A stretch of 63,902 nt of DNA, the filler included, from Collodictyon triciliatum (taxonomy: Eukaryota), in NCBI GenBank assembly GCA_043381765.1. It is 9 parts of 9 records of this genome, joined end to end, with 100 filler letters (N's around TTAATTAATTAA, not from the genome) between each part and the next. Parts side by side here need not be neighbours in the genome. Positions count along the whole stretch, not along the records: positions 29,857 to 37,215 come from JBHJMP010003937.1; 8 more parts are not named here. One strand, written 5' to 3'. Shown here in pieces: positions 7,367 through 59,688 of this stretch. How positions within the stretch are numbered: the stretch's first letter is position 1; the number at the start of each line of letters is the position of its first letter. Under the pieces are notes generated by a model, which did no database searches, was not told the DNA's origin, and was given only the letters and a program-made list of their open reading frames with translations. The position numbers were made by a program, and so were the translations under genes.

Positions 7367-7466
7367 NNNNNNNNNNNNNNNNNNNNNNNNNNNNNNNNNN
7401 NNNNNNNNNNTTAATTAATTAANNNNNNNNNNNNNNNNNNNNNNNNNNNNNNNNNNNNNNNNNNNN
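7367..7466. other. Artificial contig linker (N-run + TTAATTAATTAA + N-run), one of eight
   Basis: The same six-frame-stop 12-mer sits inside a ~100-nt N spacer at 7391, 14875, 22339, 29801, 37260, 44717, 52177 and 59633. The intervening contigs are all ~7.36 kb, consistent with size-sorted concatenation. Confidence 0.97.
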
Positions 7467-14731: not shown

Positions 14732-14931
14732 TGTGATTTGAAATCTGTCATAATTATTGAGCTTATCCCCTAGATTTTTTTATTATTTTTTTTTTTTTTG
14801 TAATTATCCTTGGTTTGGTTTGGTTTTTTTNNNNNNNNNNNNNNNNNNNNNNNNNNNNNNNNNNNNNNNNNNNNTTAATTAATTAANNNNNNNNNNNNNN
14901 NNNNNNNNNNNNNNNNNNNNNNNNNNNNNNT

Positions 14932-19689: not shown

Positions 19690-21488
19690 AGCTCAGTTGA
19701 CAGACTTTAACTGTATAAGAAATGGGTTCATATTAAAAAGAGCAGTATGTTTTAAAAATATGATTTTTTTCCTTTATTCGATACGTTTTAAAAATATGAT
19801 AATATCAGATCCATTTAGCTGAACAATAAACTGTTTTTTTATTTTTCCATCAAATTAAAGTACCTGATTCTCTGAAAAGTCTAGGGATTCAAGACACGTC
19901 ATTGTAAATATGCATAATGGAATATCGACCAACTATATACCATCAGTAAATGTCAAAAAAAAAAAACCTATAACTGAACCCTATTCAGGCCATATTAGAT
20001 GAAAGTAAACCATATTATTTGAAATGCACAGCTTTCTTAAGTCAGTGAGGACGCTAAAAGAATCCGGAATCAATGAAATCTACAGTTTCAATGTATTTTG
20101 ATTATGATTTTTTGAAGTGAAATTGAGAAAGACAAATATTCTAACCTTATTATGAGACAAGTCCATGGAGTGTATCCATTTCAATGAATGAATAAATTCT
20201 TCGCCTTGCATGAAAAGGTCTCCTCTATAAATGTAATCGAAAAGGTCTAAATCTGAATGACTAGCAGGGAAGCTTCCATAATATATGTTGAGATTCGTCA
20301 TTGATGCTATGCTTTTTGGGACTCTGATTTTAAAGTGATTATGAATTGTCTTAATTCGAATGTCTCTCAATTTGAATAATTTTGTAATATCCTGAGGTAG
20401 AAATTCAATCTGTTTCAGTTCGAAATGATGCGTTAATATATATATATATATATATATGTAAAAATTCATCAGCATTTTATTAAAAGTGAATATCCGAAAA
20501 AAATGCGCATTTTTTTTATTAACAAAGGAGTTAGCTTACTCACCCAGCCGTTGTGGACGTAAAATGTCTCCATATTTTTTAGTCTAGAAATTTCGTTTGG
20601 TATGCACGACATATTATTGGCAGATACATCGACTACCTTCACATTTTCTAATTCAAACAAACTAATTGGGTAGGATGTGAACTTGTTTTCTGATATGTCG
20701 ATATATGTAAGACCAATTAAATTCTTCATTCCTGGTGGGAGATCTGAAAGGCAATTTCTGTATGCGTATATTTCTTTCAAATTTTTCAGAAAATTTATCC
20801 CTGGTGTTAATTCTGATATTTTATTATTTGATATGTCAATGCGTTCAAGCCTATTAAGACTGGATATTTCACCCAAAACTGATGTAAGTCTATTCCCATG
20901 CATATGCAACTCCTTCACCATGGTCAGATTTGATAAAACAACTGGAAAAATACAAATATCGTTTTCTGAAATACATATGCTGCTCATATTTGTCAATTGT
21001 GACATTCCACTTGGTATTCGTGTGATTTTATTTCTATACATATCAAGAGTATTGATGTTGGTACATTTGGTAATACCTATCGGCAATTTAGATATTTTGT
21101 TGTATGACGCTCTTAAATCAAAAAGGTTTGTCAATGCTGATATTCCGGCTGGCAACGATATTAGTTCGTTATGTGATACGTTAAGAACTCTTAAATTACA
21201 CAACGCAGATAATTCATCAGGTAAAATTGATATGACGTTATGAAGCAACCATAATTTTTCAAGGTTTGTAAGCTTCGAAATATCTGGTTGTACAGATGCG
21301 ATTTGGTTTTGATGAACGCAAAGAGACTTTAATTCGGTCATTTCGAATATACAAATAGGAAAAATTGATATGGCTTTCCGCTGAACTTCCAGAGCAGTGC
21401 ACGATTCGATTCTATCGAAGAAGCTGTTGGGTTCATAATATGGTTTTAAGCTTATAAGCTCATATAAAGAAGATGATGTATTACCCAT
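19690..21488 (-). CDS. Intracellular leucine-rich repeat protein with predicted N-myristoylation motif
   Basis: Starts MGNTSS (MGxxxS). About 13 typical 23-aa LRRs lie in ORF 20469-21488, with further LRR exons near 20145-20412, 19990-20058 and 19864-19932. The 3' end is uncertain. Confidence 0.8.
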
Positions 21489-21686: not shown

Positions 21687-22393
21687 AATCAAGTGAAAAT
21701 ATACTGTGTCATACTGATGTCTACCAGATATTGATGGGGTTTTTTGCACTTATATTTTGTTGTTTTATTGAAGTGTTTTTCCACTAAATAAATCCATGAG
21801 AAGGTCGATAAAAACCAATTAGAAATTGTAATTCCATTTGAAAATTAATATTACGGAGCTAGTCATGTAAGACTTCTCAATCTCTTAAATTAATTCAAGA
21901 CTTTCGTGAGTGTAAACTTTCAACACTTTTTTTCATAAACTTATATGAAGCAGGAAATGACACATTAACATATAAATATCGAATTAATTTTGTTTTCACC
22001 AGCAAAACCTAAGTATTTTTTTTATAAATAGATGAGAAATCTTTATGAAGTCTTTGTTAAAATCCTTGTGTCCAGCATTAGATGACCAAAGTCGGAATGA
22101 GTCTTGCTCGTGTTATGTAGCAAAGGACTTCAAAAGTCGTTTAAACCGATCAAATTTCTCGATATTTTTTAAAAAAAAAATTAATTTTAATCTTTTATTC
22201 TTTTATTCTTTTATTCTTTTATTCTTTTATTCTTTTATTCTTTTATTCTTTTATTCTTTTATTCTTTTATTCTTTTATTCTTTTATTCTTTTATNNNNNN
22301 NNNNNNNNNNNNNNNNNNNNNNNNNNNNNNNNNNNNNNTTAATTAATTAANNNNNNNNNNNNNNNNNNNNNNNNNNNNNNNNNNNNNNNNNNN

Positions 22394-25300
22394 NGAGTGG
22401 AACTTTAATAAATGTATCTGTCATAAGTCTGCCAAGCAAAGTGGACTGGAGCCGATTCCTGTCGCCAAGTTGACCGAGGGCGAAATTAAGGATGGTGTCG
22501 AATCCTTCCTCATCCGCTATGACAAGACCCTGAACGAAAAGCAAGTTGGAATGATTCTGGCTGACTTTAAAGATACTGGTGAGGCATTTTTAATAAGAGT
22601 GTATATTTTGATAAAAAAATTTCCAAGGAATGATTAGTTATTCTTATGTGATATTTATTATAGGCCATCCACTTTATCTCCGCATCATTCTGGATGAAGT
22701 CAGGGTCTTTGGTGTCTATGAGAAGCTTGATGATGAACTGTTTGCGCTACTTGCGACCAACGGTGTCATTGACCTTTACACTCTCATTATCAAACGCTGG
22801 CAACTGAAGTTTGACAGGAAAGGTGAGTTTTGGTTTCATATTTCACAAAAAAAAAATGCAAATTATAATAGCAATTTTTGTTGATTGATACTTTTTCAGT
22901 GGCCTCAACTGATGGAAAAGAGACGATGAAGGTCGAGTATGTCTCCCTCTCGATGAAGGTTCTATTTGTTTCCCGCATCGGCCTGAGTGAAGGTGACCTG
23001 GACAAGTACATGAATGACGCGATTGGCGCAGGATTCGAGCTTGCTGAATGGTTTGCTTATTCTTGAATATTATATAATGAATAGGTTTACCCTTTCTCAT
23101 TTTCTTTTCTTTTCTTATTTATTTAATTTATTTAACTTATCTTTTATTCATTAAAATAGGAAATCCTTTTTCTTTACCCTCATCGAGTCGCTTTTCGTCC
23201 GCAATGGAAGGTTGGTGTTATTTCTCAGTCTTTTTCTTTCGTTAATCTGTGTTTTTGGTTTTATTTGATTTGGATATAAAGCTAACTATTGTTTATAATA
23301 GATACATGTACTTCCACCAGCTGCTGTTGGAGACCACCGAAAAGGTTTATTTCTCCGAAGGGAAAGAGATGGAAAAAACCCACGAAAAATACGGAAAATG
23401 GCTGTTTGGCCAGTATTCTGAGGCTTCTGACGCAGATGAGGAGCTTGCTGCTGAAATATGCTACCAGCTTCTGAAGGGCAGTTCGTTTGACTTGCTTGTG
23501 GAATACATGAAGCAAAAACATGTAATTTCTTTATTTTTTATTCGAGTATTTACTGTCATAATGAAACGGCATTCACTGATTAATTATTTTAAATATTTCA
23601 TAGGTTATCAGCATCATGCTTGGTGGTCGCTATCGCTACGAATTCTTTACATGCTGGAGAGCAATCAACGCAAGTGGAGCGGCGAACTACAAAGAAGCCT
23701 ATGGAAGTTTGGCTTTAGTAATTTGTTGCTTAATTTTAATTTTTTGAAGGTTACTACTCACAATTTTAATTATCAATCATGATTTATCTATTAATTATTA
23801 TTGTTTTTCAGTCTTTGGATAAAGTGGGAGACCTGCTTGTTGGATTTTTCTTGGAGTCTTTTGAGAACTCGTTCTTGTTATCTGTTCTGAATGTGCGTCT
23901 TGGAAAGCATCAGACAGAAGGTATGCGATTCGTTATTTTTTTTGATGAATTTATGTCATGAATATGAGTGTATATATATGGAGACATTCAATAATCTATC
24001 ATTCATAGATGCGAAGGCTGCTGATTACCTGAATCTTGGTCGTGTCTACAAGAACCTCCAAAAGTAAAAAATAATAATAAAAAAACAATGATTATGATGA
24101 TTAATTAATACATGACATGATGTTTATAATGCAACTTTTCTAAAATAAAAATTGAAAAGCTGGGCGGAGTCCATGGTCTACTACAAGAAATGTCTCGACG
24201 CCGTTGAGAAAAATGCAGATGATTCCCTGCGCATTGCTACCATCCATGAAGAGATGGGTATCATCTATCAGCAACAGGACAAGTAAGGCTCGCTTTCAAC
24301 TGTAAAATAAATTATGAATAATGTTTCAAAAAGGAATTATTCTGATTTTTATTATGAAACAGAATCGATGAAGCTCTTGATGAATACAAGAAATCACTGG
24401 AATTGAGAATCAAACAACTGGGTGAGAACGACTTGCAAGTGGCCCAATCACATGACCGCTTTGGAGATATCTACGTGAAGCAGTCAAAGTAATATTTAAA
24501 TCATTTATATTCGTTAATATTCTACTCTTTTCTTTAAATATATATGTATGCTGATCAATTTTTTATGATAGGAATGTGCAGGCTCTGGTTGAATATGAAA
24601 AAGCCATGGAAATCCGCCAAAAGAAAGTCGGAAACGAGCATCCTCTTGTCGCAACATCGTACCAGAACTATGGCCATGTCTCTCTGGCTGGGAAAAAGTA
24701 GCACATATATATTCATTAAACACAGTTTTAAATTAATTATGATAATTTTAGATATATTAATATGATTGAATCATCAAGGTATGAAGAATCTATTGAAAAC
24801 TTCGAGAAGGCGAAATTAATCCTTGAAAAATCGCTGGGAGCTAAGCATGCATCTGTTGCCTCGACAATCCAGTTTATTGCAAACGTTCATCTTGCCAGTG
24901 GAAAGTTCGGATTTCTAAATTTTAGATTTTTTGTATACTACAATGATATTCTATACTTTCAATTTTTGCAAAACATATTTGGCTTCATTTCTTTCATTTG
25001 TATGGACTCTATTTGGGGTTAAAATTATGCATCATATAATGCTAACAAAATAAATATCAAAACTATCGTCTTATATAGGAAAACTGAGGCCTTATCGTCA
25101 TTGAAGCAATCGCTGGATATTTTCATGTCTGCCCTGGGTGAAAATCATCCGAATGTCGTGGCCTGTCATGAGATGATTGGAGACATCAGCCATGATTTGA
25201 AGGAGTATCTCTTTTTATAAATTATTTATATTTTTAAAAGAAAAGAATAACTTATTTACTCACATTTTCCTAGCTTTAAGGGTGCTTTGGAGGCGTATAC

Positions 25301-28300
25301 GAAGACGCTGGATATTCGCGTGAGAACACTGGGCGAAAATCATGCTGATTATGCGACTTCCCTGGAGAATGTTGGCCGAACAAACTTTGAGCTGAAAAGG
25401 TAATTTTCTCTTTCTATTATTTAAAAATTAAATATTTTATTAAAACCAGTAAAAGCATACATATATATTCACTAATATACATGTATTTAGATTGGACCAA
25501 GTTGTTGAATACTTCCAGAAGGCTGCTGCTATCAGAAAGGAGACAAATACTATCATGTCACTGAAAGATGGCCCACAAATTGACAACATTATCCGACTCA
25601 TGAAGGACAAGAAGGAGCATGAAGCCGTCATTCAGCTTTACAAAACAGCTGCTGTTAGACATGCTGAAAAGTCCTCCTATGAAAACTGGGACTGGTGGGT
25701 GGCTTGTGAGACTGCACACCAATACTGCAAGGATAACAAGCTACACGAAAGTGGCGTGGCATTCTGGGCTGAGATGAGAGACAGATTCGCTGTTAAACTC
25801 GGATGGATTCACCCCAGAACATTAAACTCATGCGAATACTTGTCCGTCCATTCAAAAGAAATTGGAATCAACAAAGAGCCTGTCGAGTTTACAAGAGTCA
25901 ATAGATTCATTTGTGAAACTCTTGATGATGCAAAGCTGGATGAGGAATGGAATCGTGAGCAAATCATCGCATCGTTATTCAGAATTGTCTGCATGTCAAA
26001 GACTGATGAGAGCAAATCAAATGCTGCATCTGATGCAATCACACTTTTGAATTTCATGAATGTTTCGTTCGGTGGAATGGATTTATCAAACATCAAAATT
26101 CCACATGCAAATCTCAGTAACTCAATCTTTGATGGTACAAATCTCACTGGTGCCAACTTAGATGGTGTTGACTTCACAAATTCGATGCTTGGTGATTGTG
26201 TTTTTGATAATGCGAATATGAATAATGTGAAATTCGGAATTCGTTATGATAAATTAGAAGGTCATACAGAAACTGTTAGAAGTGTTTGCAGTATTCAAGG
26301 ACCGAATGGTGAAAATTGGTTGGCTTCTGGAAGTGATGATAGCACAATACGTATTTGGGATGTAGCCACAGGAAACCAAATAAAAACATTAGAAGGTCAT
26401 ACATATGCTGTCTGCAGTATTTGCAATATTCAAGGACCGAAAGGTGAAAAGTGGTTGGCTTCTGGTAGCTATGATAAAACTATACGTGTTTGGGATGTAG
26501 CCACAGGAAACCAAATCAAAAGATTACGTGGTCATAGAGCTTATGTTAATTGTGTTTGCAGTATTCAAGGACCGAATGGTGAACATTGGCTGGCTTCAGG
26601 AAGTGATGATAAAACAATAATTATTTGGGATGTAGCCACAGGAAACCAAATCAAAACATTATATGGTCATACAGAATCTGTCATGAGTGTTTGCAGTATT
26701 CAAGGACCGGATGGTGAAATATGGTTGGCTTCTGGAAGTCTTGATAACACAATACGTATTTGGGATGTAACCACAGGAAACCAAATCAAAACATTAAAAG
26801 GTCATACAAGCGATGTCAATTGTGTTTGCACTATTCAAGGACCGAATGGTGAAACGTGGCTGGCTTCTGGAAGTTTTGATAGAACAATACGTATTTGGGA
26901 TGTAACGACAGGAAACCAAATCAAAACATTAGAAGGTCATACAAGGGAAGTCAGAAGTGTTTGCAGTATTCAAGGACCGAAAGGTGAAAATTGGCTGGCT
27001 TCTGGAAGTGTTGACAAAACAATACGTATTTGGGATGTAGCCACGGGAAACCAAATCAAAACATTGGAAGGACATACAGAACCTGTCGCTAGTGTTTGCA
27101 GTATTCAAGGACCGAATGGTGAAAATTGCCTGGCTTCTGGAAGCTATGATGAAACAATACGTATTTGGGATTTAGGCACAGGAAACGAAATCAAAACATC
27201 AGAGGGTCATATAGGTGGTGTATTGAGTGTTTGTAGTATTCAAGGACCGAATAGTGAAAATTGGTTGGCTTCTGGAAGTTGTGATAATACAATCGGTATT
27301 TGGGATGTAGTTACAGGAAACCATATCAGAACATTAGAAGGTCATACACATACTGTCACTAGTGTTTGCAGTATTCAAGGACCGAATGGTGAAAACTGGC
27401 TGGCTTCTGGAAGTGTTGATAAAACAATACGTATTTGGGATGTAGCCACAGGAAACCAAATCAAAACATTAGAAGGTCATACAAATAATGTCAATAGTGT
27501 TTGCAGTATTCAAGGACCGAATGGTGAAAGTTGGTTGGCTTCTGGAAGTTGGGATAAAACAATACGTATTTGGGATTTAGCCACAGGAAACCAAATCAAA
27601 ACATTAGAAGGGCATGGAGATGCTGTCGAGAGTGTTTGCAGCATTCAAGGACCGAATGGTGAAAAGTGGTTGGCTTCTGGGAGTGAGGATAAGACAATAC
27701 GTATTTGGGATATAGCCACAGGAAACCAAATCAAAACATTAGAAGGTCATACAAGTTTTGTCATGAGTGTTTGCAGTATTCAAGGACCGAATGGTGAAAA
27801 CTGGCTGGTTTCTGGAAGTGGCGATGAAACCATACGCATTTGGGATGTAGCCACAGGAAACCAAATCAAAAAATTAGAAGGTCATACAGATTGGGTCAAG
27901 AGTATTTGCAGCATTCAAGGACTGAATGGTGAAAAGTGGCTGGCTTCTGGAAGTGATGATAATACAATACGTATTTGGGATGTAGCCTCAGGACACCAAA
28001 TCAAAACATTAGAAGGTCATATAGGTTCTGTCACTAGTGTTTGCAGTGTTCAAGGACTTAATGGTGAAAATTGGCTGGCTTCTGGAAGCAAAGATAAAAC
28101 ATTACGTATCTGGGATGTAGCCACAGGAAACCGAATCAAAACATTAGAAGGGCATACAAATGATGTCAATAGTGTTTGCAGTATTCAAGGACCAAATGGT
28201 GAAAAGTGGTTGGCTTCTGGAAGTGATGATAAATCAATACGTATTTGGGATGTAGCCACAGGAAACCAAATCAAAACATTGGAAGGTCATACAAGTTGGG

Positions 28301-29436
28301 TCAATAGTGTTTGCAGTATTCAAGGACCGAACGGTGAAAATTGGTTGGCTTCTGGAAGTGGTGATGAAACAATACGTATTTGGGATGTAGCCACAGGAAA
28401 CCGAATCAAAACATTAGAAGGGCATACAAATGATGTCATGAGTGTTTGCAGTATTCAAGGACCGAACGGTGAAAATTGGCTGGCTTCTGGAAGTCGTGAT
28501 AACACTTTACGTATTTGGGATGTAGCCACAGGAAACCAAACACACAGTCTGCAAAAGTCAGAAGTGACCTACACCCAAGGAAAATATCTTGTCAAGAAAG
28601 AAAAGCCTGACGAAGTCATCGCAGTATTCAACAGAACAAGTGATGCGATGGACATGATTGATACCAACAGAATCCAAGATGCAAAGACAGTCCAGATTAT
28701 CGGCCCAAGAAAGCTGCAAGGTGGAAACATCCAAATCAGAAATGTCACGCGATTGAGTCAATTCAACAAATCCCTCCTACTTTCTATCGGTGCTGCTTCC
28801 TTCGATGCGGACTTTGCTGCCTATTGTGAGCAGGGTAAGTTCACCAAGTTCCAGGCTCAAATGATGGCTGAGTGCTGTGAGAATGCATGGGGTATTGAGA
28901 AAGACACTGAGAAAGCAGCTGAGTGGAGAATTATCGCTCCTTTGAAATCATCATTAGACTTTGATGGATTGAAGCAACTCGCACAACGAGGCTCAAAGGA
29001 TGCATTCAATGTTTTGAAAGAAATGGCTGAAATTAAGGAAAACATTCTTAGCAAATGGGCAAACGAGACATATGGAAGTAAAATTGGTGAAAAATACAAA
29101 TATCCACAGGCTGTTTCTATTGTTGCTGAATGCTATGAGAATGGATGGAGTGTTGAGAAGAACACCGTGAAAGCAGCTGAGTGGTTCGGAAAAGCTGAAA
29201 ACTTTGAAAAATTGAAGCAACTTGCTCAACAAGGCTCAAAGGTGGCATTCAATGTTTTGAAAGAAATGGCTAAAATGATGGAAGATATTCTGGAGTACGA
29301 GACATATGGAAGAAAAATTAGTGAACACAAATATCCACAGGCTATTCCTATTGTTGCTGAGTGCTATGAGAATGGATGGAGTGTTGAGAAGGACACCGTG
29401 AAAGCTGCTGGGTGGAGACAGAAAACCTCAGCTTAA
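22394..29436 (+). CDS. NLR/STAND-like multidomain protein: TEP1/NPHP3-type post-NTPase helical region, TPRs, pentapeptide repeats, 17 WD40, Sel1-like repeats (5'-truncated)
   Basis: GHPLYLRIILDEVRVFGVYEKL, VSRIGLSEGDL and YFHQLL resemble the helical/winged-helix tail that follows the NACHT domain in the TEP1/NPHP3 family. Next come 42-aa TPR exons (LGENHPNVVAC, LGAKHASVAST), spliced in frame (AG|A TTG GAC at 25491) to the long terminal exon (ORF track 25492-29436, 1314 aa). The P-loop itself is outside the contig. Confidence 0.8.
24160..25399 (+). repeat. Array of single-TPR exons, all with phase-2 boundaries
   Basis: Exons 24363-24488, 24572-24697, 24779-24904, 25079-25204 and 25274-25399 are each exactly 126 nt; 24160-24282 is 123 nt. 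Confidence 0.88.
26254..28540 (+). repeat. 17 tandem 135-bp (45-aa) WD40 repeats with high internal nucleotide conservation
   Basis: Unit LEGHxxxVxSVCSIQGPNGENWLASGSxDxTIRIWDVATGNQIKT. The DNA core cagtattcaaggaccgaatggtgaaa...tgggatgtagccacaggaaaccaaatcaaaacattagaaggtcat recurs every 135 bp. Confidence 0.97.
28864..29420 (+). repeat. Three Sel1-like repeats; the last ~240-bp unit is a recent tandem duplication
   Basis: AECCENAWGIEKDTEKAAEW, AECYENGWSVEKNTVKAAEW and AECYENGWSVEKDTVKAAGW. Near-identical DNA at ~28960-29190 and ~29200-29420. Confidence 0.8.
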
Positions 29437-30385
29437 CAAGGTAAGTAGTATAGTAAATGCGTATTAATGTATGTTCGTTAACTAGAATCATTTTAGATGG
29501 AGAGATTCTCTGCGTTTTTTTCAAGCAGACCTCCGCTTTTTTCCCACAAGGACACTCCATGAAAACAGAATAAAACCATAAAAATGAAAGCAAAGCTGAT
29601 CGATCTCTGTTGCAACCATTTTTTTCTTTTTTTTTCTTTTCTTTTTTCTTTTCTTTTTTCTTTTCTTTTTCCTTTTCTTTTTCCTTTTCTTTTTCCTTTT
29701 CTTTTTCCTTTTCTTTTTCCTTTTCTTTTTCCTTTTCTTTTTCCTTTTCTTTTTCCNNNNNNNNNNNNNNNNNNNNNNNNNNNNNNNNNNNNNNNNNNNN
29801 TTAATTAATTAANNNNNNNNNNNNNNNNNNNNNNNNNNNNNNNNNNNNNNNNNNNNTGAAAAAAAAACAAAAAAAAAAAAAAAAAAAAAACATACAACAG
29901 CCGGCAAACCAGCACAACTTCCTCAGCATAGGCATTAGCGGAACCGGCAAGAATATTGTAAAATTATTTTTGCAGACTCTGAAGAAATATACCTTTATTT
30001 TTTGAATCAGCAACTATAATATAAGTCAAAATTTTGGAAATATAAGTAATGAATTATCCATTCTAATAGTCGGAAGATATTCATCCGTTCAAGTCGACTC
30101 CTTGAATCTCAAAATCATACTTTAATCAACCAGATTCAGGTATGACACATATTTGGGAAAATCTCTACGTGTATATTTTATGACTAAATAAACGCTAGAT
30201 TCTGATAATTTGCTATCCTTGTTAATATTTACCTATACTTTTCATAAGGCATATATAATATTGAATGATGTATGAATTAAAAATAGTCAAGTTGGAAAAA
30301 TCAATCATAAGTTAATTTAACGTCATTAGAGGGAGTTTCATTGAAATAAAAAAAATCTATACGTAATTAATACAAAAATTTGACT

Positions 30386-30560
30386 ATTTTTTAATTCTTT
30401 CATTCCATTTTGTGCAGGGCGGTGGAGATGCTGGCTTTTGTTCGCTAGCCATCGTTTGCATGGACGCTACTTGGTTGCCGGGTGGCGGAGAAGTAGTCGG
30501 TAATCAGGAATTGCATCCTGCGGTTTAGCCTGTAGTCTGGATCTTGTGCTTGCATAAGGA
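30386..30560 (-). mobile_element. Severely 5'-truncated copy of the same LINE family (3' terminal ~170 bp)
   Basis: 30421-30556 aligns nearly base for base with 18443-18577 and encodes LMQAQDPDYRLNRRMQFLITDYFSATRQPSSVHANDG* plus an A-rich tail. Confidence 0.85.
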
Positions 30561-33500
30561 AGACCAGGACACAAATTTCAACTCTTTAAATATTTTGATT
30601 ATTTCTCAGGATGAATTTAAAAAACCGTTTATAATAGCACTTGATGAACTTTCAGAAAGGGCCCATCTGTCATTCCATTTCATCGTACAAGGAACTCTGG
30701 AGCTCTCATTTTTTGGTTATAAATAAGTTATACAGTAATTTGACCAAGCCAATTCATAGTATCGAAAGGAAATTTATTTATCTGAAGGTTTCAAGTACCA
30801 TTAATCTAATTTTTATAATAATAAAAGAAACACATAATTAAAACTTTGAGGTCATTACAAAGAATAGTGCAATCTTTGGGCCAGATTGGCCAAGAATCTG
30901 ATAGTAAAAAAAGTATGATTCTTGTCTAATTTTACCCTCTAATTCTTATCATAATTGAAAAACACGAAAAATTTTAAAATTTTATGACAGAATATTCGTC
31001 ACATGTTTGATATTCAACGATAGAAAAAGCAAATACGCACATTTTAAGTACACGTGTTTATAAAGCCTAATTTTTAGCAGATCATCAATCAAACTTCATT
31101 CTTCATTTAGGTCTCGTTTTGATAAATGAATTAATCTGATAACTTCATGGACTAGCTGAAGAATCGCATTATTTAATTCAATATATCATATTAAGCATTA
31201 ATCATTCATCTTGAATTAGAAACTGGTCGAACTAAAGTCATGGACAAAACTCAGATACAGTTGCAATTGGAAGGGACAATAGACAAAATCCGTGGGAAAG
31301 GGAACTATTTCGATCTACTACTTGGAGGAGGGGGGAGGGGTGGTGGATCGGCGGCTCCTAGTCTTCCCGATGGTCTGAAGTAAAGGTCTAAGAACGTACG
31401 GCGGGGGTGTTGGGTTGTGTTGTGTGTGGAAGTAAGTATGTCTTGGTCTAGTCATTCATGACCAAAAAAAATAAAAAATCATATTCGTTGTAAATTTCTC
31501 TAATCAAGAGTCATTTATCCTTTTTTCGGTAAGGAGGATTAATCTTATTTGAAAACATTACCTATTCAACATATAAAATACAGCATGCATAAAGTCGAAT
31601 AGTTTATAATTAAAAATATTTCATTAGTAAAACTATACTAATGATAGAACAAAATTCAATAAAATTAAGAATTATCATCGAAGTCTGGCCATGCTAGTTA
31701 TTTCATTATTTAGTTGATAGATTTAATCCTAACATAAAATACATGGAATCAATATTGTAATACTTACAATAAATACAATAATATCAGCTATATGTTTTCT
31801 AATGAAGTTTAATCAAGATGAATGGCCTGCTTACAGAATCGTCATGCCACGTCATTTATTTTTCGATAATCGTATCACGTATTGCCTTGTGAATACTAAA
31901 TCTACAAATAATCTTTAAATTACGTATCTACTAGAAAGTGTTTGTTATCTGCAGATTCTTGGTATCTGTATTTTAAATTCCGTTTTAATTAAATCAATAG
32001 ATACGCTTTTGCATCAAATGTGAAATTTAAAAAACAACTAACCGACATAAAAACCATTATATTATCCAAATCGAAAAACACATACCATATCTCCGCTAAA
32101 AACCAGTTTGCCGCTGAATGATACACCACCCCTCTCCTTGACTGACCTGCAATGATTTGTCCACAGCTTCACACCCATACCCTTCACCTAAATAGACCTT
32201 GTTCGTTTCTCCAAGTGAAATGATTTGTTAGTTTACCGCTCAATAAAGAAACCTATTTGATAATTAATCGTTGTTGAATCATCTAAATTAGTTCAATTTT
32301 CTCCCTTTAAGATTTAGATGTCGATTTATCAAATCCAACAAACCCACCCTCCTCCTTCCAATTCCAAACCAATCAGAGGTAATGAAAAGGTATTTGTGAT
32401 ATGTATTATTATTATGTCCCCCCGACTAACCGAGGATATGGTAGACGGTTCACGCCCTTTTGTTGTTTTACGACTACCATCGTTCAAATATAATAAAAAA
32501 CCCTTTTTATGCATACAATTTATATTTTCGTATATTTATGTTGATTTCTTAATGATTTATTTATTTAATCCACCACATACAGTATGACTTCTATGATTGT
32601 TTCATACCAATGATTCTATCATTTTATCAAATCCTTGATATTGTTCGGTTTATTCCTATTCGGTCAAAATATGGCCGAGTACAAGTATTAATGCATACAC
32701 AATTTTATTGATAATCTATATTATTCATTTTTTTTATCAAATATTCAAAAACAAGAATTCAATTTGTCTGCATTGATAGAAATGTAAACCAATTGAATAG
32801 CTAAACTTTCAGTTCTAAAATATCTCTTGAAATGATTGTGCTTGTAAATTGAATACTATCAATACCTTTTATTATTATTTTTGTATCATAATTAGTTTTA
32901 GCTTTTTATAAACACTGATTTTATCTTGGGTTCCAAAGGAACTTAAAAATCACATGGCTTAGAGCTCAATGAAATATAAGATTGACATAAAACATATCGC
33001 TATTAGTAGTCAAAAGAATATAGTCAAATTTTTATCGATATAAGTTATGAAAGTTTTGGTTCTGATTTAATGAATAATATGAATATGGAAACTGACATAC
33101 GATTGGATTTTTAAGATAGTTGGTTGATTTGAATCCAAATTGAGAGCCTTTTTATAGGTAATGAAATAATCACGATGAAAAAGATACATGAAAATCTATA
33201 GTGAAACTGATCGCTAATCACTGAACCTCTTAGAGATGATACCCAGCTCTCAAAAAACATATTTTGGTGTTTCAATCAGTTGCTAATGTAAGTTTACCGA
33301 ATATTAGGATGTCACTCATCGCTTGGCCATTTCCATACACATATGGGCGTACTTCATGAGTAAGCATAGTTCTAAAACAATTAGTAATCCAGCTAACTGA
33401 AGGAAGATTTCATAAAAACTAAATTTTATACTTTTAAATCCAGAACAAATTTTTATCGGAAGCCATGTTCAAGGGCGATATCATTTTTCTCATATAATAA

Positions 33501-34570
33501 GTATTCGATATAGTCAAGCAAACAGGGTTTCTTTAATATATGATTCAATATAAATTATCTGATAATATGGCTGTTTTAACCTCTGGTTGTTTGATTAATT
33601 ACTGTGTAATTATATGGTAAACACTAAGAGGATTCAAATAAATGGTTATTACCCTAACATTTTTCATTATCATGATGAATAACAATTTATACGAATGCAA
33701 CAACCAAGAAAATTTTTTTTATAATTTGGAACTGACATTTATAATTTTAGGAATGACCAAAGTTCTAGCCGTCACAATGATTTTATGCAAATAGTTCCAT
33801 TCTCTCTTAATTATTTTAGTCATTAATCAAACCATATGAAGCACAAACTCATGATATTCTTATCTATCAAAATTTATTTGTATTTACAATCATACGTTTT
33901 AGCTTATCGGTGAATATCCAAAGATGATGAATAATAGATTATTTATCTGGTTTATATGATATTGAAAAATGAGAGAGGATTAACATACTGAATAATGATA
34001 TATGTGTGTACAAAAAGACAAGTGGTTTACGAATTTGAGGTTGATTTATTACAAGGAAAGTAAAAATAATATAAATAAGACAGTTCATATGAAAATTATA
34101 AAATCAAATAATGAATATAAATTTATACACTAAAAAATTCATTCATTTTTCCTAAGCAATATGTTTTTGTTGATTTATTTTTATAAATAATTCATTATTT
34201 TCATTATATCAACTTTATATCACATGAAAAATCAAAATATTTGATTTTTTTGACACAAAATTAAGCTTCGATTTGAGAATTGCTTTATTTAATAATGAAT
34301 ATTCTTGAAATCAAATTTACTGAATATACCTATGTTTGGTGAATAAAATATCAGCAGAAAAAACAATATTCAACTTATACTGAGAAATTAATTGCAATAG
34401 GATAGAAATGCACTCACCAGATGAAAAAAGAACTGATTTCCAACGCAATAATTTCTTCGAATCGATAAGGACATCTCCCAAAATTCCTGCAACGTGCGTT
34501 TCATAATTCAATCTGTGATAAATACATTTGATTAATTAGTCTTAATTTTAAATATATAACCAGAAATTCA

Positions 34571-37215
34571 ATGCTTTTGGTTGCGTTTGTTGCCATCGTT
34601 TTCATTGTTTCATCGGCATCCTCAATTCATCCACGTCAAAGGTATATTTTGATTTATGAATATTTATAAAATACACTTTCGACTCAAATAAGGAAAACAG
34701 ATGCCAGTATTCAAGAGATGAGTTGCTTTCCATGAATGTTGAAGATGCGTTCCAAATTCTGTTGAGCTTCTACGATGAGACATGTCCTTTGTTGAAAGAG
34801 AGTGAGGATAACTTTTCAGGGTTGATGAATGGTCGCAAAGATGGAGAATACTCGCTAGAAAATGGACGCGGTGCTGAATGGAATTACGGAAAAAAATTAT
34901 CATCTAGTAAGGTCGATTTCTACAAAGAAATTCATTCGGAAAAACAAAGTGGAAACAGAGAACGGGGGTTGGAGAATGAAGATAGTCGAAATGTGGCCGA
35001 TAGAAATACTGGGACCCAATACGAACTGCTTGTCCAACTTTACAATTCACTTGGCGGCGATATTTGGTTTTGGAACACTGGATGGAAGAATGAAACTATC
35101 CCGATTTGTAATTGGTATGGAATATCGTGTCATCAGAGCTGTTCAGATCAAGACTATAAGGTATTCCCAGTATGACAATAATATCTCTTTTGATTTCATT
35201 TTTAACATATTTTCCTTTATATTTGTAGAGCAACACATGTCCTATATTCAGAATCAGTATGTCTGGAAACAATCTTAATGGTGACATTGAAGCTGCCTCT
35301 ATAATTTTTGAGAAGTTTCAATTATTGGATTCTTTGGACATGAGCTACAACTTTATTTACGGAAATCTTCCAGACTTTAATCTCCCTAGTATTACGTATC
35401 TGAAACTCTATGTGAATCAAATTACAGGAACGATTCCAGACTTTCAAGGAATGCCGAATATTGAACATACTGATATTGATGGGAATGAATTGGAAGGAAC
35501 AATACCGGATTTTTCTGCAATACAGTCGCTGAATACATTGTTAATTGGTGGAAGTGAAAAAATTACAGGTACAAAGTAATTTCTATAAGGTTTATTCTGA
35601 ATTCTAATGATTTTTCCATTTCAGGAACTCTTCCAGACTTCTCAGTGTTGCCAAATGTTCAGTTTCTTGCAATTTATAGCTGCGAGGTTCATGGTATGTT
35701 TTTCGTTTACTTAAATATGATGGCATAGAAGTGCTAATTTTAATGCTACAGGAACGGTTCCGAACTTCAGTGGAATTCCAAATGTTTTAGAGATATATCT
35801 TCACAACAATCGATTAACTGGTAAGTTGTTGTTATTATTTCATATGTTATTGATAAAAAAAAAACTAACTTTATATTACAGGAACGGTTCCAAACTTCAG
35901 TGGAATTCCAAATGTTGAAATAATTTATCTTTACAGCAACCAATTGAATGGTAAGTTTCAATTATTATTTTCATGTATTATTGATAAAAAAAAAAAACTA
36001 ACTTTATATTACAGGAACAGTTCCAAACTTCAGTGGAATTCCAAATGTTGAAATAATTTATCTTGACAGCAACCAGTTGATTGGTATGTTTAATTATTAT
36101 TTCATGTGTTATTGATAAAAAAAACTAACTTTATATTACAGGAACAGTTCCAAACTTCAGTGGAATTCCAAATATTGAAAGAGTTTATCTTGGAAACAAT
36201 CAGTTGAATGGTAAATTTCAATTATTATTTTCATGTGTTATTGATAAAAAAAAACTAACTTTATATTACAGGAACGGTTCCAAACTTCAGTGGAATTCCA
36301 AGCGTTAGAAGAATTTACTTTGACAGAAACAGACTGAAGGGTGATTTCTACTTATTTTCGATTTCTATTCCTTTGATTTTCATATTTCCTGTAATATTAA
36401 TGAGTAATTTTAGGCACAATCCCAAACTTTTCAAATACGCGTAAACTGGAGATTTTTTCTGTCTATGATAATCAGTTGGAGGGAGTGGTTCCAGATTTCA
36501 AATATTGCAAAATAATCAAGGAAATAGCATTGTTCCGAAATAAGTTATCAGGCACATTACCGATGTTCAATATGAATAACCTGACAAGACTAGATGTGAG
36601 CGAAAACCAAATCACTGGCTCTATTTCCAATTACTGGAAATTACCATCAATTAAATACATCGACTTGTCTTGGAACAAAATGAACGGCACAGTCCCAACC
36701 TATTTCCAGGGACTGTCAGAACTGAAATCACTCGTTTTATCTCACAACAAATTCTCTGGAAGTATGCCTAATTTATTCTGGAATCTGCCGAATCTAGTCA
36801 CGATTGACTTAAGAAATAACTCATTTTCAGGAGACATTGGTGTTTTCATCTCACCAGCTTCAGGCAATTACGGTTATTTTTATGAAAACATTTTGCTTGA
36901 TGATAATAGACTGAATGGGGAATTGAATTGGTGGATATTTGACTTTGTTCTTAACATAAAAACATTAAGTCTTAAGAACAACAACATCACCAAGCTTGAT
37001 GAGCTTACAAATCTTTTGAGATGGACTTCCCTTGACCTCACTGGAAATCCGATTGTTGAAAGCATTCCTGAATCATACGTTAGGTTTTCAAAGCTTGAGT
37101 ATCTGGGATTAAATAAAACATCGATGAATCACGGAACAGCTAATTTTCTTCCTGGTTTTATGAATTTTACGACATCTTTCAATCTACAAGATGAAACAAA
37201 ACGCTACCTTTGTCC
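34571..37215 (+). CDS. Secreted/surface LRR receptor (signal peptide, LRR N-cap, GxIP/GxVP-type LRRs), 3'-truncated
   Basis: Signal-like MLLVAFVAIVFIVSSASS; cap LVQLYNSLGGDIWFWNTGWKNETIPICNWYGISC; LRRs of the NxLxGxVPxF type. The last exon is clearly paralogous to ORF 42496-43839. Confidence 0.88.
35752..36340 (+). repeat. Tandem exon+intron repeat: five 69-nt LRR exons separated by four near-identical ~60-nt phase-1 introns
   Basis: Exons 35752-35820, 35882-35950, 36015-36083, 36142-36210 and 36272-36340. The introns share ttattattttcatrtrttattgataaaaaaaa(a)ctaactttatattacag. Confidence 0.95.
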
Positions 37216-37315
37216 NNNNNNNNNNNNNNNNNNNNNNNNNNNNNNNNNNNNNNNNNNNNTTAATTAATTAANNNNNNNNNNNNNNNNNNNNNNNNNNNNN
37301 NNNNNNNNNNNNNNN

Positions 37316-40990: not shown

Positions 40991-43900
40991 TTATCGCTCA
41001 GCGAGCTCAATTGCTGATGTAGAGCGAGAGACACTTCGAATTGCAGACGAAAAAGAGCGAAGTTTTGCCGGTGAAGATGAGACGTCCCAGTATGCCATAA
41101 TCGGGAGCAAAATCATATATACGGCGAATACCACTACCACCATGGTGTTGATTGCTACTACTAGATACATCAACCACATCTGGTCTTCTATCAAATTAGC
41201 AAGCAAGCAACAGAAAAAGGAAAAGTATATCACATAGAGACTCCATATTTCCAAACGATTATCTCGGTGTGAAGCATACGGCTTGTAGCGATATTGAATC
41301 CAGATGGAAGCCTGTTGTATAAATGGGTATGATATTGTCAAATTTTGAAGACGACACAAAAGTATTGAAGAAAGATGAGACAACTATCTATTTGATACAC
41401 GTATTCAAATACCTGGAGCAAGATAAAAAGTAGTAAGTACAGAGTTGCCGGCATGTGGTAGGGGACCATCGAAATAATTAGGCTAAATGCCATCTTTCGG
41501 ATAAGGAGAACAACTTCCCAGTAGATATGGTTCTAACATGACAATTCATAAGAGATTCAATGGAGGGATTTTTTTTTAATGATGAAAAGTAGAATATCAG
41601 CCCCATAAATTAATTATATTTTAAAAAAGTGTTACTGATATGTGCGAGTATTGCGAGGATAATACGATAGTTAATCGATCAATATATTTGCGTGTTTTGG
41701 AATACTTACCTCCGAATAGCTCATGTATAAAAACCCATATTTCAACTGTAAATTAGGGTGCCTGGGATTTTCCTTGATGAGTTTCAAAGTGTGCCAGATG
41801 AACAGCGGGAAACCAATCACGAAAACAAGGGACAGTGTAGCTAAAGATAAAATCTTCTTGTACTCTCCAGAAATAGGATTGCATTCAACCCAAGGACTCG
41901 TATTCAAATACCAGGCGTCAGTGCCCTTGTCATAGAGTGTACAGCCAAGCGCCCCAAAAACATCTCGTGTTACGCGGTAGTAGATTGTGTGTATAAATAT
42001 CAGAGTTATATGAACAGCCTATGCACATTTTTTTTTTAGTGTACTCAATCTAAATAGAGAAGGTTTTACTATAAAGGATATAGAGATAAAAATTGATTTG
42101 CAATCTTGTAGTTTCTAAGCTTATTTCATCTGGAGAGTACCTTTTTCTGAACCCTGTGATTTCCAGTCAGAATCACACATCCCCCAACGAAAAGATAAAT
42201 GGGAAGGGACATCATATTGAACAACAAGGCAGGGAATGCATCTGTCTTTCCTATCACACATGATACGGATGGAAAGTTCAAAGAGCCAACAGAAGAGAAT
42301 ACTTCCAAAAACTTACTGATACCTTCGGTAGAAACGCTATTTGTCGTAATTACCGAAAGAGTTTGCAAGTGAAAAAAAAGTATCTTCAGCTTACCTACAT
42401 AAAGCAAAATATTGCCACAATAATTATTCAGACACATTCATGAAATATATCACGATCTTCAGTACTGACGCCATATTTCTATATATTGAAAAAAATTAAG
42501 GTGAAAGATGCAGTGCAGTAGACACCAGTGATTTGAATTTACCTGATGTGCGGAGAGGAGTATAATAAAGGTACATCAGAAATCCCACAAAAAACATCGG
42601 TGCCAAAATGGATAGAGCTATTATTTCACTTGTTTTACACTCATAGCATCCTTTTGAAAACTTTCCAAACCCAGTTATACATTTTGAACATACTCTGCCT
42701 CCATAACCATGGGTACATGCTTCGATATTTGCATGAGATTGATTATGGCTTCTGTCTATGGTTTGAATACACGCAGAGTAAACAGGACACAAAATGAGAG
42801 CTTCTAAATTGTCGAAGGATGGGGATGCGAAGCAGTTCCTTATAGACCTTCCATCACTGCAATCACAATACCTTGGACATTGTATACATTTGTTGTTTGC
42901 TCCGTAGTAATTGGGGAGGCAGGCGCAATAGTGGTAATCGTAGTATGACCCATCCATGTCTACAGCCGTTTGAATCACTTTATCTTTGGACTCAATCTCT
43001 GGGCATACATACTGGTCGGTTGGTTTTGCTATGAAAAATTTTGTTGTCGGCTCAAAAAAGTCAGGTATATAAGTGTCAGTTCCGTGGTTCATTAATGTAT
43101 TTTGGACCATAAACGACTGCAATCGAACAAAATACTGATATGAATGGGGAATTGAGCCAGCGATTGGGTTGTTTGAGATATCAATCTTGCGCCACTGAAG
43201 TACATTCGTCAGGTTCCCCAGGTGAGTAAGTAAGTTGTTTGACAAGATTATATCCTGTACAGATGACACATAATCGAAAATAAACCAGTTCAGCCCTCCG
43301 GTCAAGCTATTTCCGTCCACCCGGAGAATAGAATAGAAGTAGTCATACACTCCAGTATCTGGGGAAATAAAAAACCCAACGTCCCCTTTGAAACGATTGA
43401 ACCCAAGGTCTATGATTTCGAGGAGAGGGAGATTCCAAAAATATACAGGCAAAAACCCTTCTATGTGGTTCATACGAACGTGAAATTGCTTAAGGTTGGT
43501 CTTATCTTGGTAGCCTTCAGGTACAGTTCCATCGAATCGATTATATGAAAAATCAAGAAAGGAAATCATTGTTATATTTGTCAAGCATGGGAGCGTACCA
43601 TTTAGTAGATTCAAACTGAAGTCCATGTATTCCATGTTTGGGTGAGAATATTCAGGTACCGTTCCACCAAAAAAGTTGTTATGTAAGCTAATCTCTCTTA
43701 AATCCAAAGAATGATTGAGTAAAGGCAATGCACCAGTAATATTATTTGAAAAAAGTCGAAGCCTTTGTAACAACGGCAGTTGAGTGAGTTCTTGCAGCGA
43801 AGTAAACAAGTTCCATGACAAAAACAAATCCTGTAGCACTGGAAGTCCAAGGTCTGGAACAATCCCTATTCATCACAATAAGAAAAAAATTGAGAAAATT

Positions 43901-44334
43901 TCCTGTTGTAATCTCTGTATTAAAAAAATCAAAAAAGTTAGCAATCAGAATTTGAAAAAAAAAAGCGTCATATCCCAGACACTAATTAATCTGTAAAAGT
44001 AAACCAGAGAAGGATTTAAGAGGGTATTACAGCCTTAACATATATAAGAGTAGGTATTGCAACCTCCAAATTTGTTGCCAGCCAAGTTGAGTTCTCTAAG
44101 TGCCGGTGTCGCCAGAAACAATGGAAAAGTTCCTATTTATATTTGATGTCCGCTTTTATTTTCCTCAGAAAGAATAGCGTGCGAGTAAAATAATTTCTTA
44201 AACAACGTTTTTACAAGGAAAATTATAGGAAAAGATAAATGAGAAATGTATAATCTAATAGAAACCTGAAAATGCATTGTTATAAAGCCTTAAAGTTTCC
44301 AAATAAGCGTGGTGTTGCATAGGAGTAAACGGCC
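40991..44334 (-). CDS. LRR + Cys-rich + multi-pass transmembrane receptor-like protein, 5'-truncated
   Basis: LRRs, then CACLPNYYG...CIQCP...CTHGYGGRVCSKCITGF. The TM region has LKILFFHLQTL, YLNTSPWVEC, YGFLYMSY, YWEVVLLIRK and KPYASHRDNRLEIWSL. The 5' exons 44266-44334 and 44064-44132 are each 69 nt, phase 1. Confidence 0.85.
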
Positions 44335-44772
44335 CTAATGTAGAAATATATATTGACCATTGCTGGACGAAAGGATAAAAAAATAAAAATAAAATACAGT
44401 AACATGAAGAGAATCAAAAAAAAATTTTTAAAACATATAAGGACCCTTCCTTCCCTTGAATCGAACAAAGGGGGAAAATTAAAATATATAAGGACAATAG
44501 GACAAAATGCTAAATATATATAATATAAAAAAATACAATCCCCTCCCCCTCCCCACCAGTTCTCATTCCCATTCGATTCGATTCGATTCGATTCGAAGAA
44601 AAGAAAAGAAAAGAAAAGAAAAGAAAAGAAAAGAAAAGAAAAGAAAAGAGAAGAGAAGAAAAGGAAAAGAAANNNNNNNNNNNNNNNNNNNNNNNNNNNN
44701 NNNNNNNNNNNNNNNNTTAATTAATTAANNNNNNNNNNNNNNNNNNNNNNNNNNNNNNNNNNNNNNNNNNNN

Positions 44773-44804
<32 letters not shown>

Positions 44805-45090
44805 AAAAGAAAAAGAAAAAGAAGAAAAAGAAAAAGAAAAAAGGAAGAAAAAAAAGAAAAAAAAAGAAAAAAGAAAAAAGAAAAAAGAAAAAAAGAAAAA
44901 AGAAAAAAAGAAAAAAGAAAAAAAGAAAAAAGAAAAAAGAAAAAAGAAAAAAAGAAAAGAAAGAAAAAAGGGGACCCAAGAATAGACGCAAGCCAAACAT
45001 GAACCCAACACAATTGCATTCTAATCGTTTCCCTACTGTGACACAGACATCTCGCTGTCCCACACGCCGTTCAAGCCTGATCCACAGGCG

Positions 45091-51624
<6,534 letters not shown>

Positions 51625-51943: not shown

Positions 51944-52232
51944 GTGAGTCCGCTTTCTTGTCAAAGTAAAAAGAGTAAAAAGAGTAAAAAGAGTAAAAAG
52001 AGTAAAAAAGAGTAAAAAGAGTAAAAAGAGTAAAAAAGAGTAAAAAGAGTAAAAAGAGTAAAAAGAGTAAAAAGAGTAAAAAGAGTAAAAAGAGTAAAAA
52101 GAGTAAAAAGAGTAAAAAGAGTAAAAAGAGTANNNNNNNNNNNNNNNNNNNNNNNNNNNNNNNNNNNNNNNNNNNNTTAATTAATTAANNNNNNNNNNNN
52201 NNNNNNNNNNNNNNNNNNNNNNNNNNNNNNNN

Positions 52233-56273: not shown

Positions 56274-56990
56274 CTAGTCTAGCTCCGGCCTCTCTCCTCC
56301 GGGCTCACACATAAAGCTTTCGAGTGTTATGATTCGGTTGCAACCAATGTCCAAGTATCTGAGGTTTGAAAGAGAGAGTATGCTCTTGGGTAAGCTCCTT
56401 AGTCTATTCCATGACAGGTCGAGCTCTTCCAGGCACCGCATCTCTGTAACCACCTCTGGTAAGAATGAGAACCGACAACGGCTCAAGCAAATACAAGAAA
56501 GATTCGAAAGGGAAGACATTTCTTGTGGAAGATGGGACAAAGGATTGGAAGCTACATTAAGATCTTGCAGATTGTAGAATAAAGATATTTGAGATGGCAG
56601 CGCAGATATGTTGTTGGATGCCAGACTCAATTGGCAAAGATTACTGAGCTTGTAAAGTCCATCTGGGATGGAGATAGGTTCCTATTGCACAACATCATGA
56701 CCAGCCATGTATTCACCTCGTGTGCATTTGGACTCCACATTGGATGTATCACCATTTCCTCCTAATATAACATTATTAGGATTGCATGTTGTATCAATTG
56801 CTTCCTTCGCCACCTTCGTGCTCTTGTTACTCAGACCGCCTGGGAAGAGACATGGGGAATGAGATGTGAAAAAGACTGAATCTCTTCGCCTCTCATCCAA
56901 TCGCAAGACCCAGGTAATTGGGCAAGCAACATTGTGTGATTTCTGATTAGAAAAAGACAACTGCTCCGCATATCGGCCAACAGAGACCAT
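56274..56990 (-). CDS. Short LRR protein gene or LRR pseudogene (~6 repeats)
   Basis: IPDGLYKLSNLCQLSLASNNISALPSQISLFYNLQDLNVASNPL...LRYLDIGCNRI. The 5' exon structure is uncertain and the protein ends abruptly. Confidence 0.6.
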
Positions 56991-59588: not shown

Positions 59589-59688
59589 NNNNNNNNNNNN
59601 NNNNNNNNNNNNNNNNNNNNNNNNNNNNNNNNTTAATTAATTAANNNNNNNNNNNNNNNNNNNNNNNNNNNNNNNNNNNNNNNNNNNN

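Follow-up and report, generated by a model that had tools for sequence, protein, structure and literature searches.

Can introns that are better conserved than the codons of a ligand-facing strand be taken as a sign of diversifying selection on a receptor? This question is raised by a leucine-rich repeat (LRR) gene of Collodictyon triciliatum (assembly GCA_043381765.1), located within a window of 63.9 kb (63,902 nucleotides, the whole stretch of DNA analyzed here), in which five recent 69-nt exons, termed E1–E5 and each encoding a single LRR, are arranged in tandem together with their introns. The initial annotation had read this arrangement as a diversifying surface-receptor system. Our analysis does not support diversifying selection, and our best reading of the sequence is that the repeat unit would be a mosaic of differently aged parts, in an array that was probably built and partly homogenised by exchange or gene conversion. 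The locus itself appears to encode ectodomain sequence of a receptor-like LRR protein, its host being an AT-rich eukaryote, and it is to this explanation as a whole, comprising the receptor-like locus, the origin of the array and the mosaic reading, that our moderate confidence applies.

Six consecutive 69-nt phase-1 exons, predicted by the initial annotation, were recovered at identical positions (Table 1), all preceded by AG and each encoding one 23-residue LRR. Translation including the last G of the preceding exon reproduced the predicted 23-residue peptides, with glycine as the junction codon at every cassette boundary, and the donors of the six exons read, in order, GTATGT, GTAAGT, GTAAGT, GTATGT, GTAAAT and GTGATT. 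The first of them, E0, is indeed an older exon, differing from the cassettes at 10–11 of 30 nt in the 5′ half and at 17–25 of 39 nt in the 3′ half, and its intron I0 is not alignable with the cassette introns I1–I4. For the remaining five, Tandem Repeats Finder returned a 130-bp unit in 4.3 copies with 88% matches, and a separate repeat search yielded five copies at spacings of 130, 133, 127 and 130 nt. The left edge of this array coincides with the E1 acceptor, and its right edge falls at position 30 of E5. The proposed exon-per-LRR layout is supported, and so is a local amplification in which the intron was copied as well. Allowing up to three mismatches, the intron/exon core pattern matched four times and the exon 5′ pattern five times, and none of 100 shuffles gave a match; on both strands of the window the exon 5′ pattern was confined to the five cassettes, with no inactivated or inverted copies. 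The introns I1–I4 share an invariant 3′ end holding TTACAG and CTAAC, the latter presumably a branch-point-like motif; none of them is a multiple of three in length, and reading through them meets stop codons.

Divergence is distributed unevenly along this unit. All zone counts refer to the aligned units U1–U4, and the nucleotide diversity (π) is also given with E5 where stated. Within exon nucleotides 1–30, two of 30 positions were variable (π 0.039), both changes being silent, whereas nucleotides 31–69 showed 17 of 39 variable positions (π 0.256, or 0.318 with E5). The intron likewise falls into two parts: its first ~29 columns contained seven variable sites among 29 and two gap columns (π 0.129), whereas its last 29 ungapped columns were without any variable site (π 0) and differed in the length of a poly-A run alone. 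The earlier claim that the introns are better conserved than the strand codons therefore holds numerically, the substitution density being higher in the exon 3′ half than in the whole intron (17/39 versus 7/58 variable sites, Fisher p = 6.6e-4), but the intron is not uniformly conserved. Comparing a variable block, made up of the exon 3′ and intron 5′ parts, with a core consisting of the intron 3′ and exon 5′ parts yielded 24/68 versus 2/59 variable sites (Fisher p = 4e-6). The conserved block straddles the intron/exon border and does not track exon–intron identity.

The individual cassettes differ in the extent of this contrast. Their 5′ halves overall differ at 0–2 of 30 nt. In the 3′ half E1 differs from E2–E4 at 12–15 of 39 nt, E2 is nearest to E3 with 3 of 39, and E4 differs from E2 and E3 at 8–9 of 39, with 2/58 differences between the introns. 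The 3′ half of E5 differs from those of E1–E4 at 13–19 of 39 nt, reaching 19 against E1 and 18 against E4; these two values lie within the 46–67% nucleotide divergence observed between unrelated LRRs of the same gene, whereas the E5 5′ half carries only 0–1 differences in 30 nt from the other cassettes. Four sites with a 2:2 distribution are parsimony-informative among U1–U4, two of them grouping U1,U2 against U3,U4 and the other two U1,U4 against U2,U3.

We next consider silent and replacement changes, as the initial annotation had stated that the strand codons differ non-synonymously. Proportions of replacement (pN) and silent (pS) differences were obtained from Nei–Gojobori counts for the 10 pairs among the five exons. 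The x positions of the strand do vary, with positions 13, 14, 18, 19, 21 and 23 all variable and Tyr16 constant, but silent sites differ at least as much. For the 5′ half pN was 0 and pS 0.13–0.15, giving a pN/pS of 0, whereas the 3′ half exhibited a mean pN of 0.264 and a mean pS of 0.547, with pN/pS ranging from 0.32 to 0.98 across all 10 pairs. Separating the 3′ half further, the six x positions of LxxLxLxxNxLx showed a pN of 0.452 and a pS of 0.473 (pN/pS 0.96), and the seven scaffold positions a pN of 0.096 and a pS of 0.600 (pN/pS 0.16). Silent divergence in the strand half (0.39–0.60) exceeds that of the intron and the 5′ half (0.13–0.15) several-fold. Among codon columns encoding the same residue in all five exons, nucleotide variation was present in 3 of 3 in the 3′ half versus 2 of 10 in the 5′ half. 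For E3 and E4, pS was 0.209 and pN 0.204, beside two substitutions per 58 intron columns, and silent sites of the 3′ half are saturated between E1 and E5 (pS 1.06). Replacement changes thus appear not to be in excess; the x positions seem to drift at about the silent rate while the scaffold is constrained, and diversifying selection is not supported by these counts. Because silent sites share the excess of the strand half, and because the E5 3′ half lies at background level, the data point to parts of different ages rather than to accelerated replacement. The lesson is that introns exceeding codons in conservation can mimic positive selection, and that silent sites within the same codons reveal halves that differ in age.

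Based on these patterns, we propose that the array would have arisen from single-LRR exons lying next to each other, by unequal exchange or by replication slippage, with one breakpoint in mid-exon. This creating step can be read from the two edges of the array. One of them, at 35747, coincides with the E1 acceptor and the other, at 36301, lies midway through E5, as would fit an unequal exchange recombining two adjacent exons across their similar 5′ halves, in support of unequal recombination as the likely engine suggested earlier. Partial homogenisation, a step that we infer, would have followed through more unequal exchange or short-tract gene conversion. Conversion tracts would comprise the intron, chiefly its 3′ half, together with the first 30 nt of the exon, which encode the loop side (GTVPNFSGIP), and would seldom reach the last 39 nt encoding the β-strand LxxLxLxxNxLx, the core's own identity making it a preferred recombination substrate. 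The β-strand halves would accordingly be older than the core and would have drifted, about neutrally at the x positions and under purifying selection at the scaffold. Each cassette is 69 nt long and symmetric (phase 1-1), so that the reading frame survives when any one of them is gained, lost or skipped. Judged from its sequence, the locus can readily change its number of LRRs, and there is no sign here of selection for doing so. Copying of the 130-base exon-plus-intron unit is an ordinary growth route for such genes.

The core was examined for other properties as well. E0, its intron I0, and the intron and 5′ half of a 69-nt exon (44132-44064) in a paralogue on the next contig are all devoid of the cassette core, and because of this the core is, as far as the compared sequences indicate, not a deeply conserved functional element of the family. 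The G-T-V-P and G-I-P codons of the invariant core (35750-35781 and at the start of each later cassette) give rise to two perfect palindromes, GGAACGGTTCC and GGAATTCC; they are probably a coincidence, though they lie within the presumed recombination substrate. No transposon was seen on the contig carrying the LRR gene, and an Rfam search of 35400-36600 gave no matches at E <= 1. We also considered the ~60-nt introns as degenerate LRR units, in line with a model in which introns stem from intronised repeats or are gained through tandem duplication. This idea was rejected by best local alignment of the introns to 8 LRR units, as 42–83% of 300 shuffles reached the best score for 4 of 4 introns.

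Several observations weigh against the mosaic of differently aged parts. The numbers are small, with five copies and ~7 silent sites per half, so that power is low; the difference in variable sites between the exon 3′ and intron 5′ parts is not significant (p = 0.13), nor is the clean silent test when restricted to E1–E4, where 2/5 versus 2/10 invariant-residue columns vary. Path averaging in multiply changed codons, inherent to the Nei–Gojobori procedure, can inflate the silent count. The four mutually incompatible sites are all transitions, so that recurrent mutation could explain them, and splicing constraint could partly cause the invariance of the last 29 intron columns. With the intron as neutral standard, replacement divergence at the x positions (0.40–0.45) is 3- to 6-fold that of the intron, which is what a model of diversifying selection predicts. 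Finally, such a mosaic would also result if selection, in a form that maintains diversity, acted against converting the binding face, and this cannot be told apart from a neutral escape from conversion.

Diversifying selection in its strict form would require a uniformly young array, in which positive selection drove replacements in the ligand-facing strand codons while the introns and the 5′ half record low neutral divergence. It would account for the differing residues being x positions and for the pN of the 3′ half and of the x positions exceeding the intron π (~0.065 overall, 0.129 in the 5′ part), and the nearest solved relatives of the protein are ectodomains of plant LRR receptors such as GSO1 and FLS2, which bind their ligands on the β-strand face. 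We nevertheless regard it as rather unlikely: pN/pS, calculated for each exon half, does not exceed 0.98 in any of the 10 pairs and is below 1 even at the x positions, the silent sites of the strand half are as elevated as described, the E5 3′ half is at the level of unrelated LRRs directly beside a 5′ half with 0–1 change, and x positions are the least constrained ones in any LRR and would be variable under drift too. A broader proposal is that the array would diversify a protist surface receptor in the germline. Conversion would keep a recombination and splicing core (the intron 3′ end and the GTVPNFSGIP half) identical, so that cassettes are freely gained, lost, exchanged or skipped, and selection would reject conversion of the β-strand halves, preserving a set of different binding faces. 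If true, it would represent a combinatorial receptor comparable to DSCAM or ROCO in a lineage close to the collodictyonids, which is without described immune-type receptor diversity; on the present sequence we consider it unlikely.

The same symmetry of the cassettes could serve regulated skipping, with identical acceptors and branch sites yielding varied sets of LRRs as reported for the Ectocarpus ROCO genes. Any subset of the six phase 1-1 cassettes could be skipped in frame, all junction codons being glycine, there is no variation in the four acceptors or in the 29 ungapped columns forming the intron 3′ part, and alternative splicing of tandem LRR exons is reported for brown algae (PMC11378527). 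However, symmetric phase follows automatically from copying one unit, and among 7 isoform pairs from 5 Trinity genes of Diphylleia rotans, a small sample from a distant species that serves as a proxy for cassette skipping, none differed by a multiple of 23 residues in the LRR region, which makes combinatorial splicing appear quite improbable. Were copy-number polymorphism or cassette skipping true, the locus would provide a compact model for receptor diversification. Lastly, the repeat unit is 130 bp and its contig 7.36 kb long, and short-read assembly might have given the repeat a wrong copy number or chimerised alleles or paralogues into one array. The assembly is fragmented, the window consisting of small contigs joined by N linkers, the invariant core is ~60 nt long, and no read pieces span the array, which is thus known from the assembly alone, a point that also counts against the mosaic. 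Yet the units differ at many positions in an ordered and frame-preserving manner, no splice site is disrupted, the product remains open after splicing and has the LRR periodicity of its relatives, and misassembly alone does not create an exon-per-LRR structure; we therefore hold an artefact to be very improbable.

In one freshwater metagenome run (X1, share 0.08), 18 short contigs, 85–99% alike, cover parts of the gene (34000-37215), but the depth was 0 in bins 35620 to 36051 and no piece from this run spans the array. The similarity of these contigs suggests a related organism or paralogues in the sample. One X1 record matches only 36126-36175, within the core, and has unrelated flanks. The exact 25-nt exon core gave no match in metagenome contigs, and a protein-guided scan of such contigs returned 362 stretches, of which one was confirmed at only 25% identity (L001) and was not used. 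A 60-aa open reading frame (ORF) reading through the cassette, compared with proteins of 106–2000 aa, gave six candidates, none at E <= 10.

The spliced model of the LRR gene comprises ten exons and encodes 695 aa, free of stop codons and cut by the contig end; all its introns are of the GT/AG type and 56–73 nt long. Splicing of exon 1 to exon 2 keeps the frame open, and residues 5–52 of the model align to residues 11–64 of the D. rotans protein P0084 with 41% identity (E 3e-7). The signal peptide was judged by eye rather than by a predictor. The Cys cap encoded by exon 2 matches Pfam LRRNT_2 with an E-value of 0.0024 and 18.6 bits, below the cut-off of 20.7, and exon 2 aligns with the corresponding region of P0084. 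The last visible exon is recognised by Pfam LRR_8 (2.3e-20), LRR_4 (3e-20) and LRR_1 (1.8e-19). The product has at least 17 LRRs overall, and a pattern search found it to hold at least 16 units of 22–27 residues starting with G-x-[IVLFM]-[PSHQEG]; the tandem LRRs fit the consensus LxxLxLxxNxLxGxIP with a repeat length of 23 residues. The best matches among solved structures were ectodomains of plant LRR receptor kinases (GSO1, 6s6q; FLS2, 4mn8; MIK2; PEPR1), with E-values from 3e-68 to 3e-57.

Table 1 Coordinates of the features discussed, counted along the whole window.
Feature	Position	Strand	Basis or remarks
Exon 1: ATG and hydrophobic N-terminus (putative signal peptide), phase 2 end	34571-34641	+	
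Exon 2: N-terminal region, LRRNT-like Cys cap	34701-35160	+	translation, Pfam, P0084 alignment
Exon 3: multi-LRR, phase 1 end	35229-35568	+	Pfam LRR_1, LRR_4
E0: 69-nt phase-1 exon for one LRR, older and not in the recent array	35625-35693	+	sequence comparison
Array of 130-bp tandem units (each a 69-nt exon with a 58-64-nt intron), 4.3 copies	35747-36301	+	
Cassette exon E1	35752-35820	+	
Intron I1 (61 nt)	35821-35881	+	
Cassette exon E2	35882-35950	+	
Intron I2 (64 nt)	35951-36014	+	
Cassette exon E3	36015-36083	+	
Intron I3 (58 nt)	36084-36141	+	
Cassette exon E4	36142-36210	+	
Intron I4 (61 nt)	36211-36271	+	
Cassette exon E5: 5′ 30 nt in the array, 3′ 39 nt unrelated at background level	36272-36340	+	
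Last visible exon: ~10 further LRRs, cut at contig end	36414-37215	+	Pfam, P0004 alignment
Paralogue of the LRR gene, next contig	40991-44132	-	
Linkers between pieces	7367-7466, 14831-14930, 22295-22394, 29757-29856, 37216-37315, 44673-44772, 52133-52232, 59589-59688		

Relatives of the gene were compared along their full length. The nearest protein of similar length, P0004, matches the last exon along its entire 266 residues with 53% identity and extends past the LRRs into a Cys-rich region and a transmembrane (TM) segment. Among longer proteins, the relatives with full coverage are five transcriptome proteins with 31–42% identity and 922–1602 aa, some of them 5′-truncated, all from D. rotans (EukProt EP00002). 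Reading the sequences of the full-length forms by eye, and not with a TM predictor, we recognised a signal peptide and LRRs of 23 residues, along with a Cys-rich stalk and several hydrophobic stretches in the C-terminal region. The spliced model aligns with P0079 at 39% identity over 516 columns, gap-free across the cassettes, and with P0084 at 32% over 656 columns, the gaps being inserted ~23-residue, LRR-sized blocks in P0084. These alignments support the exon borders. Pfam families found on P0079 and P0084 were LRR families, NIDO and a weak DUF7630, with no ROC, COR or kinase domain in these two proteins, and the C-terminal hydrophobic region of the D. rotans relatives matches no Pfam family. 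Look-alikes in an atlas search were unnamed protist clusters. The notion that the array represents an expansion relative to the relatives was not supported, since P0084 has more LRRs through its inserted blocks; for P0079 the LRR count is a reading of landmark positions only and not a measurement. We found no paper combining 'Diphylleia rotans' with 'leucine-rich repeat'.

The paralogue on the next contig carries its single-LRR exon as a 69-nt phase-1 exon too, and the exon-per-LRR layout is therefore older than the array. Its long exon, starting from 43865, contains LRRs according to Pfam as well as a Cys-rich region and a hydrophobic segment recognised by eye, and a C-terminal hydrophobic ORF extends over 41383-40991. 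Additional intron-free LRR open frames were observed on other contigs at 20469-21488 (-), 45025-46395 (+), 46532-49042 (+) and 56274-56681 (-), one of them upstream of an 836-aa hydrophobic, membrane-protein-like ORF.

Comparable exon-wise LRR genes have been described in other lineages. In the ROCO genes of Ectocarpus each LRR is a 72-nt exon starting from the same Gly, and these exons are shuffled with positive selection reported (PMC3341825). According to PMC11378527, the brown-algal exons lie in phase 2 and undergo alternative splicing, and the LRR exons of vertebrate gonadotropin receptors are a similar case. The C. triciliatum gene shares with the brown-algal ROCO genes and their type I LRR exons one LRR per exon of a fixed length divisible by 3, a symmetric phase and an exon beginning at the Gly of the GxxP motif, the ROCO exons being tandem-duplicated, shuffled and proposed to build variable receptors. 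It differs from their 72-nt phase-2 exons by a length of 69 nt and phase 1, and it encodes an extracellular protein with a putative signal peptide, its relatives having a Cys-rich stalk and a multi-pass membrane domain and no ROC-COR GTPase. In further contrast to the ROCO genes, its introns are without inactivated or inverted LRR copies, positive selection was undetected among the five copies, and one five-cassette array was seen. Tetrahymena contains tens of thousands of exactly 90-bp phase-2 LRR exons in arrays, three or more being counted as an array, attributed to unequal crossing-over and linked to the retrotransposon REP (PMC6564038). Common to both systems are fixed-length, same-phase LRR exons in tandem, for which within-gene unequal crossing-over has been proposed there as the cause of copy-number change; unlike in Tetrahymena, we observe here one small 69-nt phase-1 array. 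Among protist LRR genes growing by exon-plus-intron copying, the 69-nt phase-1 module of this locus is a third size and phase beside those of brown algae (72 nt) and Tetrahymena (90 bp), and it occurs in a poorly sampled eukaryote for which the nearest known relatives of the family are Diphylleia transcripts. The architecture also differs from the earlier cases, combining an extracellular LRR domain with a Cys-rich stalk and a multi-pass membrane domain, the last two taken from the relatives.

The GxIP-type LRRs and the putative LRRNT-like cap resemble the ectodomains of plant LRR receptor kinases and receptor-like proteins (RLPs), although the repeat has 23 rather than 24 residues and the relatives are without a kinase. 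Unlike receptor-like kinases, with a single TM pass and a cytoplasmic kinase, and RLPs, with a short tail, these relatives have the Cys-rich stalk and many TM helices, judged by eye, that belong to no Pfam family. In plant R-gene clusters, such as coffee SH3, gene conversion reportedly homogenises paralogues while solvent-exposed LRR residues stay diverse with dN > dS. The array resembles these clusters in its mosaic of homogenised and diverged parts, with diversity concentrated in the xxLxLxx residues, but there the mosaic lies between whole genes with dN > dS, whereas here it lies between 130-bp units within one gene and dN does not exceed dS.

The window itself consists of nine joined pieces, eight of ~7.36 kb and a final one of 4.2 kb, nearly in order of falling length; the linkers between them are N44-TTAATTAATTAA-N44, and adjoining pieces are not syntenic. 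The piece carrying the LRR gene (29857-37215) has a GC content of 31%, at the lower end of the 31–43% range of the pieces, and the sequence past 37215 is unrelated. On a different piece, an intron-free WD40 array of 135-bp units in 16.9 copies with 85% matches extends over 26253-28540 within an ORF at 25453-29436 (+), a 1327-aa open frame with 17 WD40 stretches and near-identical repeats. Fungal NWD/HET-E recognition genes are said to carry high-identity WD-repeat arrays, which this array resembles, and we regard the ORF as a second candidate for a repeat receptor in the same assembly. Tandem Repeats Finder further identified an 11-bp microsatellite (AACAAATAAAC) with 41.6 copies at a contig start (37316-37759), and several contig ends are simple CT/GA or poly-A/T repeats, such terminal simple repeats probably being the reason why the assembly breaks there.

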